This document shows positions 3,722-9,709 of a stretch of 9,709 nt of DNA, piece by piece; position 1 is the stretch's first letter, and every line of letters starts with the position of its first letter. The notes beneath the pieces were generated by a model. The model made no database searches. It was not told the origin of the DNA and saw only the letters and a list, made by a program, of their open reading frames with translations. Source of the stretch: a virus (Duplodnaviria; Heunggongvirae; Uroviricota; Caudoviricetes); the IMG/VR virus record IMGVR_UViG_2529292908_000016; one strand, given 5' to 3'. The position numbers and the translations under genes are program-made.

Positions 3722-3922
3722 ATGCATCAGAAAACAGCAGAACACGAACAAACCAGAGTATTGCTGACCATCAAAAACGGGAAAGTAATATTCATTCGCC
3801 ATGTTCATGACGATGAACTTGTAGGAACTCTTTCAACATTCCTGTTTATTGCAGAAAAGGCAGGATATGACGTTATTGCACCAGCAGATGAAGATGAAGA
3901 TGAAGATGAAGATGAGGAATAA
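3722..3922 (+). CDS. Hypothetical small protein (66 aa) with a poly-acidic C-terminal tail (DEDEDEDEDEE)
   Basis: GGGAGA Shine-Dalgarno 5 nt before ATG at 3722. The C-terminal tail is encoded by a (GATGAA)4-GATGAG tandem repeat. The next gene starts 5 nt after the stop. Confidence 0.6.
   Translation: MHQKTAEHEQTRVLLTIKNGKVIFIRHVHDDELVGTLSTFLFIAEKAGYDVIAPADEDEDEDEDEE
3887..3916 (+). repeat. Tandem hexanucleotide repeat (GATGAA)4 plus GATGAG inside a CDS
   Basis: Read directly at 3887..3916; in frame, encoding alternating Asp-Glu. It also supplies the GAGGAA Shine-Dalgarno for the downstream gene. Confidence 0.9.
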
Positions 3923-3927
3923 ATATC

Positions 3928-4509
3928 ATGCAATACGATGAATTCCAGGCTGAAGCAACAGCCAATGGTATACGAACTGGCAGTATGACGATTGATTATC
4001 ACGACGCCATACGTCGTCTGGATGCCGGAGAATTCGATACTCCTAATGTGCGAGGTTTACGTATCCTTCAGTGTCTGGCGCAAGCCGACGAAGCAGGATT
4101 ACTGGGTAAACTTCCGGTTGAGATGAAGGTTGCTCAGTGGCGATGGTTGTATGTGACGACATTCATCAACGAAGAAGAAGACAAGAACGGCACAATTGAT
4201 ATCCTGAATGAACACGGAACAACTGAACACGCCGTGGTATATAACGGGATGTATGGGTTTATGACGATATATCCCGGCCCCATTCGATTTGCCTTACAAC
4301 AGTATATTGAATGGAATTTAATTCAAAAATACGGCGAAGCTGAAGGAATGGGAAGAGCGCTGTTTCTTTATCAGAAAATGCTCACTACTTCCCCTGATAA
4401 AGGTTTCATTCTTTCAGATATGGGGCGAGAAGGGCTTGAAATCCTTCTGGATGAAATTATTAACGAAATGAATACTCATGGCATGCAATCCGAAACAGAT
4501 ATTAAGTAA
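3928..4509 (+). CDS. Hypothetical protein (193 aa), function unknown
   Basis: GAGGAA Shine-Dalgarno 8 nt upstream of ATG at 3928; tightly spaced after the acidic-tail gene; no motif I can recognise. Confidence 0.7.
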   Translation: MQYDEFQAEATANGIRTGSMTIDYHDAIRRLDAGEFDTPNVRGLRILQCLAQADEAGLLGKLPVEMKVAQWRWLYVTTFINEEEDKNGTIDILNEHGTTEHAVVYNGMYGFMTIYPGPIRFALQQYIEWNLIQKYGEAEGMGRALFLYQKMLTTSPDKGFILSDMGREGLEILLDEIINEMNTHGMQSETDIK

Positions 4510-5515: not shown

Positions 5516-6018
5516 GCATCAGAACCTACGCAGTGAATTGCAATGACGCATGGCTAAACACCGAAGGTGATGACATCTCCGGCTCATACGTTAAGTACAA
5601 AGACCATCAGGAAGTGGTTGCCGCTCTTGAGGCCAAGTGCGCGGCGCTGGCAGCGGAGAATGCGGGAATAAAGTCTGCAATTCCAGAATCACGGGATATT
5701 GAAGATGACAATGACAATATGGATGACGTATCTCTCGCGGAAGACTTCGGGTTCAATCATGCAATAGAACGGATGAGGAGACAGATACCTGAAACGCCAA
5801 CCACTGATGCTTTCCTGGCTGAAGTCCGGGCGCAGGGGGTGGATGCTGCTATAGAAGCTGCAAAAAATCTGGTGGCCCAAGAATATGAGTATAAGGATTT
5901 CAAAGCGGCGCAGAGTGATTGCTGTATGTACCCTGGTTCAGACCTGGTAGGGAAGGTTGAAATGACTGAGTGGTTAGTTGACTTTGCTGCCCAGCTTCGC
6001 AAAGGAGGCAACCAGTGA
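5512..6018 (+). CDS. Hypothetical protein (168 aa) with an Ala-rich predicted coiled-coil segment
   Basis: GGGAGAG Shine-Dalgarno 7 nt before the first ATG (5512) of track ORF 5455..6018. Segment HQEVVAALEAKCAALAAENAGIKSAIPE. Stop TGA overlaps the GTG start of the next gene (GTGA). Confidence 0.6.
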   Translation: MSIRTYAVNCNDAWLNTEGDDISGSYVKYKDHQEVVAALEAKCAALAAENAGIKSAIPESRDIEDDNDNMDDVSLAEDFGFNHAIERMRRQIPETPTTDAFLAEVRAQGVDAAIEAAKNLVAQEYEYKDFKAAQSDCCMYPGSDLVGKVEMTEWLVDFAAQLRKGGNQ

Positions 6019-6692
6019 GCGAAATTAATTACCAGGCACTGCGTGAGGTGGTGGAACGTGCAATTCCAGCAATGGAACGCCTGTTAATGTTGCCAGTTGA
6101 TGATGATTTGTTAAGTGAACAGGAACTTAAAGATTACGGTGTGGATATTGATGCGCTCAACGCCTTCAAATTTCTGACCGGACCAGAAACCGTGCTGGCA
6201 CTGCTGGATGAGATCAACGCATTAGAGGAAACGCGTATCAACGATGTTTGCCGTATTGCGGAACTAACAAAACAACTGGAGTTGGCAAAATCAAAACTCA
6301 ACGAGCAGCGTGAGTATTACGAAGGTGTTATCTCGGATGGAAGTAAGCGTATTGCTGAACTGGAGAAAAGCGAAGAGCAACTCATTAACGAGCGTGACCA
6401 TGCTGAGTCTGCTTTAGCTGATATGTATTTTGCAGCAACCGGGGATAGGCCTGAGTGGAGTAACTGGTTCGGTTTTTCAGATGCAGTAGATGCCGTAGTT
6501 GACAGAATTGCTGATTTAGAAGCTAAACAGCCATCGCCAGTAGTACCTGAAGGACTGATTAAAGCGGTGCGTTTTTATGAGCAGGTAAAACGTGAGAACC
6601 CGCCAGTCGAAACCGGAGCATGGAAAGACGCTGTTGACTGGGTGCTCAAAGAGGCTTGCCAGGCTGTAAACATTGGCATCAAAGGAGAGTGA
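6015..6692 (+). CDS. Ead/Ea22-like family prophage protein (225 aa), coiled-coil rich
   Basis: AAGGAGG 7 nt before GTG at 6015. N-terminus MSEINYQALREVVERA and the coiled-coil middle (LTKQLELAKSKLNEQREYYEG...ELEKSEEQLINER) match my recollection of the Ea22-like family. This is a recalled family assignment, not a search result. Confidence 0.65.
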   Translation: MSEINYQALREVVERAIPAMERLLMLPVDDDLLSEQELKDYGVDIDALNAFKFLTGPETVLALLDEINALEETRINDVCRIAELTKQLELAKSKLNEQREYYEGVISDGSKRIAELEKSEEQLINERDHAESALADMYFAATGDRPEWSNWFGFSDAVDAVVDRIADLEAKQPSPVVPEGLIKAVRFYEQVKRENPPVETGAWKDAVDWVLKEACQAVNIGIKGE

Positions 6693-6694
6693 GG

Positions 6695-6808
6695 ATGTTC
6701 AATAATTTGCCTGGTACTGGTTTTTCGTTGTTTTCGGTGTCATTTGCGCCGTTATTGGTTGGGCAGTTATTGAGTCCATTCTTTGGCTGCTTTCTTTCAT
6801 TCACATAA
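6695..6808 (+). CDS. Small hydrophobic peptide ORF (37 aa): MFNNLPGTGFSLFSVSFAPLLVGQLLSPFFGCFLSFT
   Basis: ATG 2 nt after the stop of the 6015..6692 gene, with AGGAGA at 6683..6688. Composition is strongly hydrophobic, consistent with a single membrane-spanning peptide. Below the track size cutoff. Confidence 0.3.
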   Translation: MFNNLPGTGFSLFSVSFAPLLVGQLLSPFFGCFLSFT

Positions 6809-6829
6809 CTATTGGTTGAGAACTGACCC

Positions 6830-7621
6830 ATGACCACTTTAACCGACAAAGAACTGATTAAAGAAATCAAAGAGCGTATAGGCAGCCTGGACATCCGAGA
6901 CAATATTGAGCGTCGGGCTTATGAAATTGCTCTGGCATCGCTGGAAGCAGAGGCAGTTATGTTCTGTATATCAGGACAAAATGTAGATTCAGAAGAACAT
7001 GTATCAACCAGCAAAGCGGTTGTTGATGCCTGGGTTGAAGAATGGAATCAGGTTGACAGAAGTCCTGGCGAACCACTGTACAAAACTATGCCACTCTACT
7101 ATCACGCTGCCTTGCCAGCGCCGGTAGTGCCGGAAGAAGCAACTCCGGAAAACGTAGAAATGCTCTCTGGCTATGTTTCCACGTACAAATTAACCGATAG
7201 CGAGCGCGATATTGCTGCCGAAATATGGAACGCCTGCCGCACCGCCATGCTTCAGTCCGGAAACTTTCGGGAAAGCAAGAATTCGTCAACCAATAATTTT
7301 CGGGAAATCCCGGAAGCGTCAACCAGCTCTCCGGTAACTCCGGCTCTTCTGCCTGGTGGTTTCACCATTGAGGAGGCGAAGGAATTACATGAAGACCTGG
7401 TACGCAGCCACATAAGCAAGGCCTTAAGTGGCGAAAAGATGAAAAAGAAAGATCGCGATGCTGATTTGCGCTGGATTCATGGCGTTATAGTTCAGGCAGC
7501 GTGGTTTGTAAAAGCATCACTGGAGCAGAATGCACTATCGGGCAACTCTCCGGTAACTCCGGATGGTTGGATAAGCTGTAGTGAGCGAATGCCGGACGAC
7601 AGGCAGGAGGTGAATCAATGA
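6830..7621 (+). CDS. Hypothetical prophage protein (263 aa) with internal repeats; C-terminus resembles the start of a DUF551-type domain
   Basis: Long ORF in the operon. Contains two exact 17-bp direct repeats encoding SPVTP and a duplicated NFRE motif. Ends with GWISCSERMPDDRQEVNQ, which resembles the W-[IV]-S-x-x-[DE]-R-[LM]-P opening of DUF551 as I recall it, cut short by the stop. Confidence 0.7.
   Translation: MTTLTDKELIKEIKERIGSLDIRDNIERRAYEIALASLEAEAVMFCISGQNVDSEEHVSTSKAVVDAWVEEWNQVDRSPGEPLYKTMPLYYHAALPAPVVPEEATPENVEMLSGYVSTYKLTDSERDIAAEIWNACRTAMLQSGNFRESKNSSTNNFREIPEASTSSPVTPALLPGGFTIEEAKELHEDLVRSHISKALSGEKMKKKDRDADLRWIHGVIVQAAWFVKASLEQNALSGNSPVTPDGWISCSERMPDDRQEVNQ
7327..7343 (+). 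repeat. 17-bp exact direct repeat CTCTCCGGTAACTCCGG, copy 1 (inside CDS)
   Basis: Identical 17-mer found again at 7546..7562; the 219-bp offset keeps both copies in the same reading frame (SPVTP). Confidence 0.9.
7546..7562 (+). repeat. 17-bp exact direct repeat CTCTCCGGTAACTCCGG, copy 2 (inside CDS)
   Basis: See copy 1 at 7327..7343. Confidence 0.9.
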
Positions 7622-7701
7622 GCTGGCCTGATGCAATCGTAACTCTGGGGGTGGTATTCGCAGCAGCGTTTGTTGTGTTCTCGATTTGTCGATGGGGATA
7701 A
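7618..7701 (+). CDS. Small hydrophobic peptide ORF (27 aa): MSWPDAIVTLGVVFAAAFVVFSICRWG
   Basis: Canonical GGAGG (7606..7610) 7 nt before ATG at 7618. The ATG overlaps the upstream gene's stop (ATGA) and its own stop is 4 nt before the next ATG. One predicted transmembrane span. Below the track size cutoff. Confidence 0.4.
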   Translation: MSWPDAIVTLGVVFAAAFVVFSICRWG

Positions 7702-7705
7702 CCAC

Positions 7706-7948
7706 ATGTTCGCTTTGATTCAACGCGGTCAGATATACACGGACAGAGCCGGATACCCCGTGGTGATTACTCGCATCACTGAGCACTCAGTGTTCTTTCG
7801 ACGGATGGACGGACGATCCGGGCGGGTACGCATTGGTGAGTTAAACTGCCTGTTCGAACATATTGACCACCAGGAGTACCGCAAAATTCTCGCGGACACT
7901 GAGCAGGAAAAGCACCTGAAAAAATTACGAGCCATAAAAAGGAAGTAA
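7706..7948 (+). CDS. Small prophage protein (80 aa), possibly DUF4222-like
   Basis: First ATG of track ORF 7670..7948, with GGGGA 7 nt upstream. MFALIQRGQIYTDRAGYPVVITRITEHSVFFRRMDGRSGRVRIGELNCLFEHID resembles small beta-rich prophage proteins found next to xis/int. The family name is from memory and unverified. Confidence 0.55.
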   Translation: MFALIQRGQIYTDRAGYPVVITRITEHSVFFRRMDGRSGRVRIGELNCLFEHIDHQEYRKILADTEQEKHLKKLRAIKRK

Positions 7949-7951
7949 AGA

Positions 7952-8098
7952 ATGAATAAAGCATTTGAACGATGGGTCCACCAGCGTTACGGCAATCGCT
8001 ATGACCTGACGCGAGATGTTGACGGCTTCTACTGTCGTGAAGTTGTGAAGCGAATGTTTGAAGTGTGTTGCCACTGCCGTGGGCTGAGTGTTGTGTGA
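7952..8098 (+). CDS. Small Cys-rich protein (48 aa): MNKAFERWVHQRYGNRYDLTRDVDGFYCREVVKRMFEVCCHCRGLSVV
   Basis: AAGGAAG Shine-Dalgarno before ATG at 7952, which lies 3 nt after the upstream stop. Contains C-x9-C-C-x-C, a possible metal-binding cluster. Ends 8 nt before the excisionase-like gene. Below the track size cutoff. Confidence 0.4.
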   Translation: MNKAFERWVHQRYGNRYDLTRDVDGFYCREVVKRMFEVCCHCRGLSVV

Positions 8099-8106
8099 GG
8101 TAATAC

Positions 8107-8343
8107 ATGGGCAATGTGATTCAACTGGCTCCCAATGAATGGGTTTGTGAAAGCGTTCTTATCGCAATTACCGGGCTCAAACCAGGCACAATTCTTCGGG
8201 CCCGGAAAGAATGCTGGATGGTTGGAAGAGAGTATATTCACGTATCACCAGACGGTAATCCAAAGCCTTCCAGTGAATGTATGTATAACAGAAAAGCAAT
8301 AGATGCCTGGGTCGCCTCAATGAAAAACAAACAACCCAGGTGA
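8107..8343 (+). CDS. xis: Excisionase-like small DNA-binding protein (78 aa)
   Basis: GAGGT Shine-Dalgarno 5 nt before ATG at 8107. Lies immediately upstream of the integrase on the same strand, with size and basic/aromatic composition typical of winged-helix excisionases. The call rests on position and composition, not a verified domain hit. Confidence 0.65.
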   Translation: MGNVIQLAPNEWVCESVLIAITGLKPGTILRARKECWMVGREYIHVSPDGNPKPSSECMYNRKAIDAWVASMKNKQPR

Positions 8344-8398
8344 TTTAATATCATGAAATATGTAAGCTCGTATCGCTCTTGGGCGTCTGGAGGTATCG

Positions 8399-9709
8399 AT
8401 GGATAAAGTCAAATATCCAACAGGCGTCGAAAACCACGGCGGCACATTACGCATCTGGTTTAATTTTAAAGGTAAACGTGTCAGGGAAAATCTTGGTGTC
8501 CCTGACACTGCCAAGAACAGGAAGATCGCCGGGGAACTGCGGACATCAGTATGTTTTGCCATCCGCACAGGAAGCTTTGATTATGCTGCACAGTTCCCTG
8601 ACTCCCCCAACCTTCAGGCTTTTGGGGTAAGTAAAAAAGAAATTACGGTGAAGGAACTTGAAGAAAAGTGGCTGGATCTGAAACGAATGGAAATCTCTGC
8701 AAATGCATTCAATCGCTATGAATCCGTTGCAAGAACGATGGTTCCGAAAATTGGAGGCAGTAGACTGGTGTCATCGGTAACCAAAGAGGAATTGCTGTAT
8801 ATCAGGAAAGATTTGCTGACCGGGTATCAGAATTCAATGAAAAACAAAGCAGCAAAAGGACGGAGCGTTGTTACTGTAAATTATTACATGACGACAATCG
8901 CTGGAATGTTTCAGTTTGCTGCAGATCACGGTTACTTAGAAGCAAATCCCTTCCAGGGAATTAAGCCTCTTAAAAGAGCCAGGGCAGAGCCAGATCCGCT
9001 AACTCGTGACGAATTTATTCGCCTGATAGATGCTTGCCGACATCAGCAGACGAAAAACCTGTGGTCATTGGCTGTGTACACAGGAATGCGTCACGGTGAA
9101 CTGGTCTCCCTGGCCTGGGAAGATATCGATCTGAAGGCAGGAACAATTACCATCAGGCGCAATTATACGAAACTTGGTGAGTTCACTCTACCGAAAACTG
9201 AAGCAAGCACAAACAGGGTTGTGCACCTTATCCAGCCCGCTATCAGTGTCCTGAAAAATCAGGCTGAAATGACAAGACTGGGTAAGCAGTACAACATCAA
9301 GGTGCAACTACGTGAATATGGACGTTCAGTGAACCATGAATGTACTTTCGTGTTTAACCCTCAAGTGGTTAGAAAAAGCGAACAGGTAGGTTTTGTCTAC
9401 AAAGTCGATTCTGTAGGTGACTCATGGGAAACAGCCATTAAGCGTGCAGGGATCAGGCATCGAAAGGCATACCAGTCACGACACACTTATGCGTGCTGGT
9501 CATTATCTGCCGGAGCAAACCCAAGCTTCATTGCCAGCCAGATGGGCCATGCAAGTGCCCAGATGGTATTCAATGTATACGGAGCATGGATGACTGACAG
9601 CAATGCAGAACAGATCGCAATGCTGAATCAGAAGCTGACAGATTATGTCCCAATGATGCCCCATAGTCACCAAAGTGACACCAGAGGCTTATTAAAATCA
9701 GTAAGTTAA
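8399..9709 (+). CDS. int: Tyrosine-type site-specific integrase (436 aa)
   Basis: GGAGG Shine-Dalgarno 5 nt before ATG at 8399. Catalytic-domain hallmarks are present: TGMRHGEL (box I Arg), SRHTYACW (H-x-x-R region) and MGHASAQMVFNVYGAW (catalytic Tyr). The N-terminus YPTGVENHGGTLRIWFNFKGKRVREN looks like an arm-type DNA-binding domain. Stop TAA is the last codon of the window. Confidence 0.9.
   Translation: MDKVKYPTGVENHGGTLRIWFNFKGKRVRENLGVPDTAKNRKIAGELRTSVCFAIRTGSFDYAAQFPDSPNLQAFGVSKKEITVKELEEKWLDLKRMEISANAFNRYESVARTMVPKIGGSRLVSSVTKEELLYIRKDLLTGYQNSMKNKAAKGRSVVTVNYYMTTIAGMFQFAADHGYLEANPFQGIKPLKRARAEPDPLTRDEFIRLIDACRHQQTKNLWSLAVYTGMRHGELVSLAWEDIDLKAGTITIRRNYTKLGEFTLPKTEASTNRVVHLIQPAISVLKNQAEMTRLGKQYNIKVQLREYGRSVNHECTFVFNPQVVRKSEQVGFVYKVDSVGDSWETAIKRAGIRHRKAYQSRHTYACWSLSAGANPSFIASQMGHASAQMVFNVYGAWMTDSNAEQIAMLNQKLTDYVPMMPHSHQSDTRGLLKSVS

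Follow-up and report, generated by a model that had tools for sequence, protein, structure and literature searches.

A widespread 41-codon phage gene family and a very probably frameshifted copy between an Ea22-like gene and a 263-codon gene of a prophage

AcrZ, MgrB, KdpF and MgtS are examples of small single-pass membrane proteins. Bacterial and phage proteins of this kind that act by binding larger membrane proteins have been reviewed (PMC12648545). The releasin of phage Mu, gp25 (DUF2730), is larger; it has 99 amino acids, with an N-terminal transmembrane domain and a 73-aa cytoplasmic domain that carries its function (PMC9239132). The lambda exo-xis region contains the genes ea8.5, orf60a, orf61, orf63 and ea22 (PMC3824215, PMC7093339).

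The locus examined here is part of a 9,709-nucleotide stretch of DNA (the window) from an IMG/VR virus record. Judged by its gene order, the window is an early accessory stretch of a prophage, in which regulatory genes (Rha- and LexA-family) are followed by a DUF4752 gene, two Ead/Ea22-like genes, the small gene of interest, a DUF551-related gene, a DUF4222 gene, an excisionase gene and an integrase gene. The assignments to the Rha and LexA families rest on near-identity to annotated strain 700462. A first-pass annotation of the window had noted a 37-codon open reading frame (ORF) for a hydrophobic peptide next to the Ea22-like gene, and had suggested a membrane toxin, a Kil-type protein or a holin modulator. 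The features that bear on this ORF are given in Table 1.

Table 1. Coordinates of the small gene, its neighbors and related loci
Feature	Position	Strand	Remarks
Ead/Ea22-like gene	6015..6692 (ATG 6072 or GTG 6015)	+	Pfam PF13935 (Ead_Ea22), E 4.4e-22; phrog_250
Shine-Dalgarno sequence AAGGAG	6682..6687	+	7 nt 5' of the ATG, within the last codons of the Ea22-like gene
37-codon ORF	6695..6808	+	Codons 1-10, authentic N-terminus; codons 11-37, +1 frame of the ancestral gene
Very probable remnant of a conserved 41-codon gene for a predicted small membrane protein	6695..6819	+	125 nt here, 126 nt when intact; from alignment and family searches
T5 homopolymer, site of the one-base deletion	6721..6725	+	T6 in all relatives of the clade
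263-aa gene, N-terminus MTTLTDKELIKEIKERIGSLD	6830..7621	+	Same N-terminus downstream of the small gene in all E. coli-clade copies
Spanin-adjacent family members	Gene at ~3001, 4001 or 2276		Loci L015-L020, L027, L031-L038, L051

Several observations concern the surroundings of the small gene. Rfam searches over the window gave only two matches, both at gathering level and within 373-561, namely a C4 antisense RNA at 373-460 on the minus strand (82 bits) and an isrK Hfq-binding RNA at 485-561 on the minus strand (62 bits); there was no match over the small gene. The two RNAs lie side by side in a region annotated as Rha-family regulator genes in strain 700462, and from these matches the pair resembles a module for antirepressor control in the prophage, of the P1/P7 immI type or the Gifsy IsrK type. 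Strain 700462 (L005) is the closest complete-genome relative of the whole window. Compared to this strain, the window has 12 extra bases of a GATGAA repeat at 3886-3897, in frame, at the junction of the ORFs at 3722-3922 and 3928-4509, indicative of a length-variable acidic repeat. Strain 700462 itself has a frameshifted Ea22-like gene and a frameshifted hypothetical gene (5618-6305 and 6789-6967), and decay of accessory genes in resident prophages seems to be common. On the other side of the small gene, the extreme C-terminus of the 263-aa gene product (residues 246-261) matches only the first 16 positions of DUF551. Related loci have a 284-aa product (L008) or other variants that share the N-terminus MTT(L/F)T(D/V)KELIKEIKERIGSLD. 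The 263-aa gene is highly mosaic, and its shared N-terminus may act as a recombination linker.

The open reading frame at 6695 and its T run

The ORF was confirmed from the sequence, with ATG at 6695-6697, TAA at 6806-6808 and the product MFNNLPGTGFSLFSVSFAPLLVGQLLSPFFGCFLSFT. Its ribosome-binding site and its position 2 nt after the upstream stop, TGA at 6690-6692, were present as first described. The AAGGAG was unchanged in all E. coli-clade copies examined, and copies of the type found in phage Av-05 had AAGGGG or AAAGGG when the upstream 25-30 nt were compared. The small gene is tightly packed in operons, starting 2 nt past the upstream stop or overlapping it, which is compatible with co-translation.

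Neither the size of the ORF nor the character of its product identifies a gene. A length of 37 codons is unremarkable, as 110 ORFs in the window reach 30 aa. The peptide is hydrophobic (GRAVY 1.12), but the stretch has a T content of 45% and the +1 frame of the intact gene described below is hydrophobic too, so hydrophobicity is not evidence for the gene. More generally, a T-rich membrane-protein gene keeps its "hydrophobic" character out of frame, and hydrophobicity alone therefore cannot validate a small ORF.

Window positions 6678-6822 (145 nt) were used as a nucleotide query against complete E. coli genomes. Matches were found in 34 genomes, 29 of them chromosomal and 5 on plasmids. Each of the 34 had one extra base compared to the window (146 vs 145 nt, or 142 vs 141 nt in the single partial match), and for 28 this one-base gap was the sole difference from the query. 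When the window was aligned with four relatives, the difference was found to be a run of five T in the window vs six in the relatives. Likewise, a census of the fetched loci of the clade found T6 in 21 of 21, with T5 in the window alone. The IMG/VR contig UViG_2606217106_000018 (L007, 3887 bp) was compared to window positions 5824-9709 and had 0 mismatches and 1 gap, the gap being that T. The 28 gap-only genomes and the 3.9 kb shared with L007 thus connect the window copy to intact family members at the nucleotide level.

Restoring the missing T results in a 41-aa protein, MFNNLPGTGFFVVFGVICAVIGWAVIESILWLLSFIHITIG, with its stop codon TGA at 6817-6819 in window coordinates. This exact protein was found on 198 public contigs, and the exact 37-aa peptide on none. 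Frame 1 of the intact gene reads ...SLFSVSFAPLLVGQLLSPFFGCFLSFT*, which is the same frame as that of the window peptide beyond codon 10; because one T is missing at 6721-6725, the 37-aa sequence after codon 10 is unlike the frame of any relative. Conservation across homologous prophages had been proposed as a check on the ORF. The 37-aa frame was kept in no close homologue, whereas the 41-aa frame was kept, and the window copy was the disrupted one. Two minus-strand ORFs also lie over the site (6699-6800 and 6679-6903); the conservation signal is in the plus-strand frame, and a difference of T6 to T5 would shift the minus-strand frames as well. Taken together, these data indicate that window positions 6695-6819 are very probably a copy of a conserved 41-codon phage gene that was broken by a T6-to-T5 deletion. 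Such a deletion would exchange residues 11-41 for 27 unrelated residues, with loss of the conserved core. With the core lost, the window copy would be inactive, or active only through traces made by -1 slippage, unless the missing T is a sequencing error.

A sequencing or assembly error in the homopolymer is the main alternative, and we consider it somewhat short of an even chance. In that case the 41-codon gene would be intact and functional, with T6 in the real genome. Only one base differs, it lies in a homopolymer, L007 has no other difference over the flanking 3.9 kb, and the T5 allele was present in no other public sequence. However, five or six T make a short run for a systematic homopolymer error, and it is common for accessory prophage genes to have been inactivated very recently. 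One further single-base indel separates the window from strain 700462 in their aligned stretches, at 5850. This indel belongs to strain 700462, since L007 agrees with the window there, and it argues neither way on whether the missing T is biological. The gene copy in the window is probably dead or mis-sequenced.

The 37-aa peptide could instead be a functional hydrophobic effector in its own right, whether a membrane toxin, a Kil-type protein or a holin modulator. The ORF is open, its ribosome-binding site is good and its product is hydrophobic. However, residues 11-37 come from reading a conserved gene in its +1 frame, and no relative encodes the peptide. The exact peptide and its 50-aa, TTG-started extension were both absent from approximately 15 billion public proteins, and scans of the peptide against Pfam, PHROG, NCBIfam and PADLOC gave no match. 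The peptide does not have the G-W-x-x-I-E and W core of the intact protein, which is out of frame, or any other conserved residue of the family. Two prolines are located inside its hydrophobic stretch, and its best 19-residue hydropathy was 1.63 compared to 2.43 for the intact protein. We consider a functional 37-aa peptide very unlikely. The initial description was accurate as to hydrophobicity but not as to the product, which is a frameshift read-out.

A programmed switch at the T run, by phase variation or by ribosomal or transcriptional slippage, would give both the 41-aa and the 37-aa products. The intact allele has GG-U UUU UUC in the 0-frame, formally a slippery heptamer. By the same reasoning, the exact wild-type 41-aa protein would be recreated from the T5 allele if ribosomes slipped by -1 on GGU UUU UCG or if RNA polymerase added an extra U, although only trace amounts would be expected. 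Against a switch, the run is limited to the E. coli and Av-05 clades, Providencia-type copies have no run at that place, and its length varied in only 1 of 22 loci. A consensus scan gave a single weak hairpin (6735-6751), and sites were no more numerous than in shuffled sequence. Because the T run is not conserved outside the clade, a programmed switch is highly improbable. The hairpin at 6735-6751 was also considered as a terminator and rejected, being weak and no more than the shuffled control gives.

The 41-codon family and its genomic settings

The family to which the intact gene belongs is unnamed and is defined here, as the MFNNLPG / G-W-x-V-I-E family, by a length of 36-57 aa and a core of G-W-(G/A)-V-I-E with a W four residues on. 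By length and core together, the T-restored DNA of the window fully belongs to the family, and the 37-aa product, which has the first 10 residues only, does not. A profile search of 1.84 billion representatives found 46 clusters at E <=0.001. A search with a wider profile in a database of 5.8 billion found 203 clusters, all of 36-57 aa and all named "hypothetical protein." Conservation was determined from 147 distinct sequences chosen for the motif G-W-x-x-[IVL]-[EDQ] (147 of 150), so that G and W are invariant by construction. In this motif-selected set, position +4 was I in 147 of 147, the next residue was E in 145, and a W was found nine residues after the G in 138. The consensus core was C-A-V-x-G-W-(G/A)-V-I-E-x-(I/L)-(L/I)-W-L-F-S-(F/H)-(V/I)-H-I-(S/T)-(F/W)-G. 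The family has few K and R residues, and its N-terminal tail is uncharged or acidic.

Distant copies, from Providencia sp. Me31A, from proteins named Providencia by NCBI and from unassigned viral contigs, keep the ATG, Shine-Dalgarno sequence, length and motif at 50-56% protein identity and 36-37 aa (for example, MFNNLPGSGTFLFLGFVCAVLGWGVIEGLIYLCKWIF). The ratio dN/dS was approximately 0.1-0.4 in nearly all pairs with estimable dS, and there was a clear excess of third-position changes. Although dS was saturated in most comparisons between the two clades, the start, length and motif were retained. These codon comparisons show that the 41-codon gene is under purifying selection. That the stretch is instead non-coding, a recombination linker or RNA element between mosaic ea-region genes with an incidental ORF, fits the sharp mosaic module boundaries (~6680-6820) between genes with shared recombinogenic ends. 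We consider this very unlikely given the codon-position bias, dN/dS below 1 and the lack of an Rfam match at the stretch, and because hundreds of clusters retain the start codon, the length and the motif at identities as low as 40-55%.

The intact and Providencia-type peptides were scanned against Pfam, PHROGs, NCBIfam and PADLOC, and no family entry was found. These scans, those of the frameshifted peptide, and Pfam and PHROGs scans of 43 further members together gave scattered chance-level matches only (Voltage_CLC, DUF1328, phrog_16366), and 0 of 46 family sequences scanned reached the Pfam threshold for any family. The family profile had no match in a PDB sequence search. A full-text literature search for the strings MFNNLPG, GWGVIEG, GWAVIES and GWAVIEG found no paper in the library covered, and literature on DUF551, Ea22 and small membrane proteins yielded nothing about the 41-codon gene. 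On this sequence evidence, the family behind the window copy is genuine, widespread and uncharacterised, and is absent from Pfam, PHROG, NCBIfam and PADLOC. An overlooked gene for a small hydrophobic protein between the Ea22-like and 263-aa genes, as first suspected, is therefore real, in the form of the 41-codon gene.

Annotation of the gene is uneven. RefSeq (PGAP) omits the intact gene in all three E. coli records inspected (L001 1556-1681, L002 1518-1643 and L053 2518-2643), and some GenBank phage records annotate it, such as that of Av-05 (AII27668.1). The 39-aa "members" of the cluster of the 41-aa protein (P0152 and others) were discarded; they derive from an unrelated ORF in an overlapping frame and were joined to the cluster only via a 72-aa fusion, P0002. 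P0007, a 44-aa Providencia protein, apparently combines the first ~28 residues of the small protein with the C-terminus (…IAYSGSE.H.VLQLE) of a downstream 60-aa ORF, as found within the 2196-2716 stretch of L019, and would be a second, independent disruption of the small gene.

The family, of at least 203 clusters, extends over temperate, virulent and jumbo phages that infect Gammaproteobacteria, with hosts in the genera Escherichia, Klebsiella, Providencia, Serratia, Edwardsiella, Erwinia, Vibrio, Shewanella and Pseudomonas. Most members, including that of the window, are among early accessory genes and not in lysis cassettes. Members are carried by E. coli prophages and by an 88-kb E. coli plasmid with Ea22-like and DUF551 genes; E. 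coli R6 and ETEC4090 are examples of strains with the intact allele. They are also carried by Klebsiella prophages, between the replication and nin genes, by Klebsiella phages of approximately 46-50 kb and by jumbo phages of approximately 250-280 kb; other members are in arrays of tiny genes. Neighboring genes for DUF4752, Ea22 and DUF551 or a dATP/dGTP pyrophosphohydrolase, as in the window, recur around the members in the E. coli and Klebsiella prophages, the plasmid, the Klebsiella phages of approximately 46-50 kb and the Vequintavirinae described next.

Two virulent, rV5-like Vequintavirinae, Av-05 (L003, KM190144.1 75382-75507) and 18-1-2 (L004), have a copy of the small gene whose nucleotide sequence is 87-89% identical to that of the prophage. 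In both, the copy belongs to a block of lambdoid style, together with eae, EaA and Ea22-like genes. This block is a sign that temperate and virulent phages have exchanged accessory genes.

In Providencia-type and Pseudomonas phages, the small gene is directly 3' of Rz/Rz1-type spanin genes, at the end of holin-endolysin-Rz/Rz1 cassettes. The gap between the last spanin gene and the small gene was 9-14 nt, or approximately 200 nt in one Pseudomonas phage. The adjoining spanins belong to at least three PHROG families (13, 214/456 and 89), the holins of these cassettes differ (Phage_holin_3_1, 3_3 and 8), and the endolysins and downstream genes vary. On visual inspection, the endolysin N-terminus in L015 and L016 resembled a putative signal-anchor-release sequence. 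This position hints at a lysis-linked role, and the small gene may be an unrecognised fifth gene of the lysis cassette. However, unrelated accessory genes commonly land at the site after the lysis cassette in lambdoid genomes, and because of this, and because most members are elsewhere, spanin adjacency is weak evidence of a role in lysis. The gene recurs both in early accessory arrays and at lysis-cassette ends, and these settings point to no single role. Placement after unrelated spanin genes nevertheless provides a testable lead to a further component of lysis or envelope control by phages of Gram-negative bacteria. For the window itself the consequence is small; the flagged peptide is a frameshift product, and the family behind it is the useful by-product.

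Predicted structure and possible roles of the intact protein

The intact product, of approximately 40 residues, is predicted to form a single hydrophobic helix, and an acidic residue is part of the conserved core. The GRAVY of the product is 1.65. The AlphaFold2 model of the 41-aa protein is a single helix over residues 8-40 with a mean pLDDT of 87; for a helix of only 41 residues, a model by itself carries little weight. The helix would insert into the inner membrane, with a putative N-out topology favored by the acidic N-tail and the scarcity of K and R. With its membrane-buried Glu and two Trp, it could pack on itself or on a partner membrane protein of phage or host. Conservation runs along a contiguous stretch and is not confined to one helical face, so this packing model is not specifically supported; the periodicity signal was modest, with a peak near 90 degrees.

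The small protein may be a dispensable accessory factor that moves horizontally between phages as a small cassette. Its target may be a holin or spanin of the lysis machinery, or else a protein of the host envelope, as in superinfection exclusion or host takeover. A modulator of the host envelope or of exclusion type is possible but less likely than not, an accessory of lysis timing or of the spanin or holin is slightly less likely still, a membrane toxin is unlikely, and the remaining probability falls to something else. A more specific proposal, which we put forward as speculative, is that the intact protein is the founding member of an undescribed and widespread family of phage intramembrane effectors, in which the invariant Trp and the near-invariant buried Glu would dock into an inner-membrane complex of host or phage and thereby control envelope integrity, lysis timing or superinfection. 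The docking target could be, for example, a proton-conducting, stator-like complex of the TolQR or ExbBD kind, a holin or a spanin. The T5 allele of the window would then be a natural variant with loss of function or low expression.

Comparison with known systems

The surroundings of the small gene resemble the lambda exo-xis region, with small early accessory genes that lie beside Ea22-like genes and separate the recombination or regulatory genes from xis-int, and with the same operon logic. No homology of the small gene to the lambda exo-xis genes was detected. To our knowledge, the products of those genes are soluble and none is a membrane peptide.

Hok/Gef type I toxins are likewise prophage-borne and hydrophobic, with approximately 40-50 aa and one transmembrane helix, and hokD is 1.3 kb downstream of the small gene in locus L001. 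Hok-type genes, however, stand alone and have a folded mRNA and an antisense RNA, whereas the small gene is packed in an operon 2 nt after the upstream stop and has no Pfam or NCBIfam similarity to them. A consensus scan of 6300-7100 found no antisense promoter-like site over the small gene; the only minus-strand site was at 7007-6980, outside the ORF. The antisense RNA and independent transcription unit typical of type I toxin-antitoxin systems (Hok, Ldr, Ibs, TisB) were thus not found, and these results speak against the membrane toxin of Hok type that had been suggested. A Kil-type function was not supported either, as none of the 46 family sequences reached the Pfam threshold for lambda Kil or KilR-type proteins. 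Kil-type proteins are soluble, in contrast to the single hydrophobic helix predicted for the 41-aa protein. No match to the anti-phage defence models of PADLOC was found for the intact, Providencia-type or frameshifted sequences.

The family also differs from holins. It has no holin match in Pfam or PHROG, its C-terminus is hydrophobic and nearly uncharged with no charged tail, and a separate recognised holin is present wherever a member sits in a lysis cassette. A role as holin modulator, also proposed initially, is a weak possibility, several clades having the gene directly after spanin genes. Mu gp25 is similar in position only, just 3' of spanin genes, where the 41-aa family is found in Providencia-type and Pseudomonas phages. 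Unlike gp25, the family is of 36-57 aa, has no soluble domain and is mostly outside lysis cassettes, and no family sequence scanned reached the Pfam threshold for DUF2730.

The small single-pass modulators come closer. The 41-aa protein shares with them a length of approximately 40 aa, one predicted hydrophobic helix, the lack of a soluble domain and a tendency to be missed by routine annotation, and the conserved intramembrane residues of the family suggest helix-helix recognition of the same sort. In contrast to those proteins, to which it has no sequence relationship, the family is phage-borne and mobile as a cassette and has a near-invariant buried Glu. By analogy, the nearest functional counterparts of the family would be the small single-pass membrane proteins that modulate larger membrane complexes.
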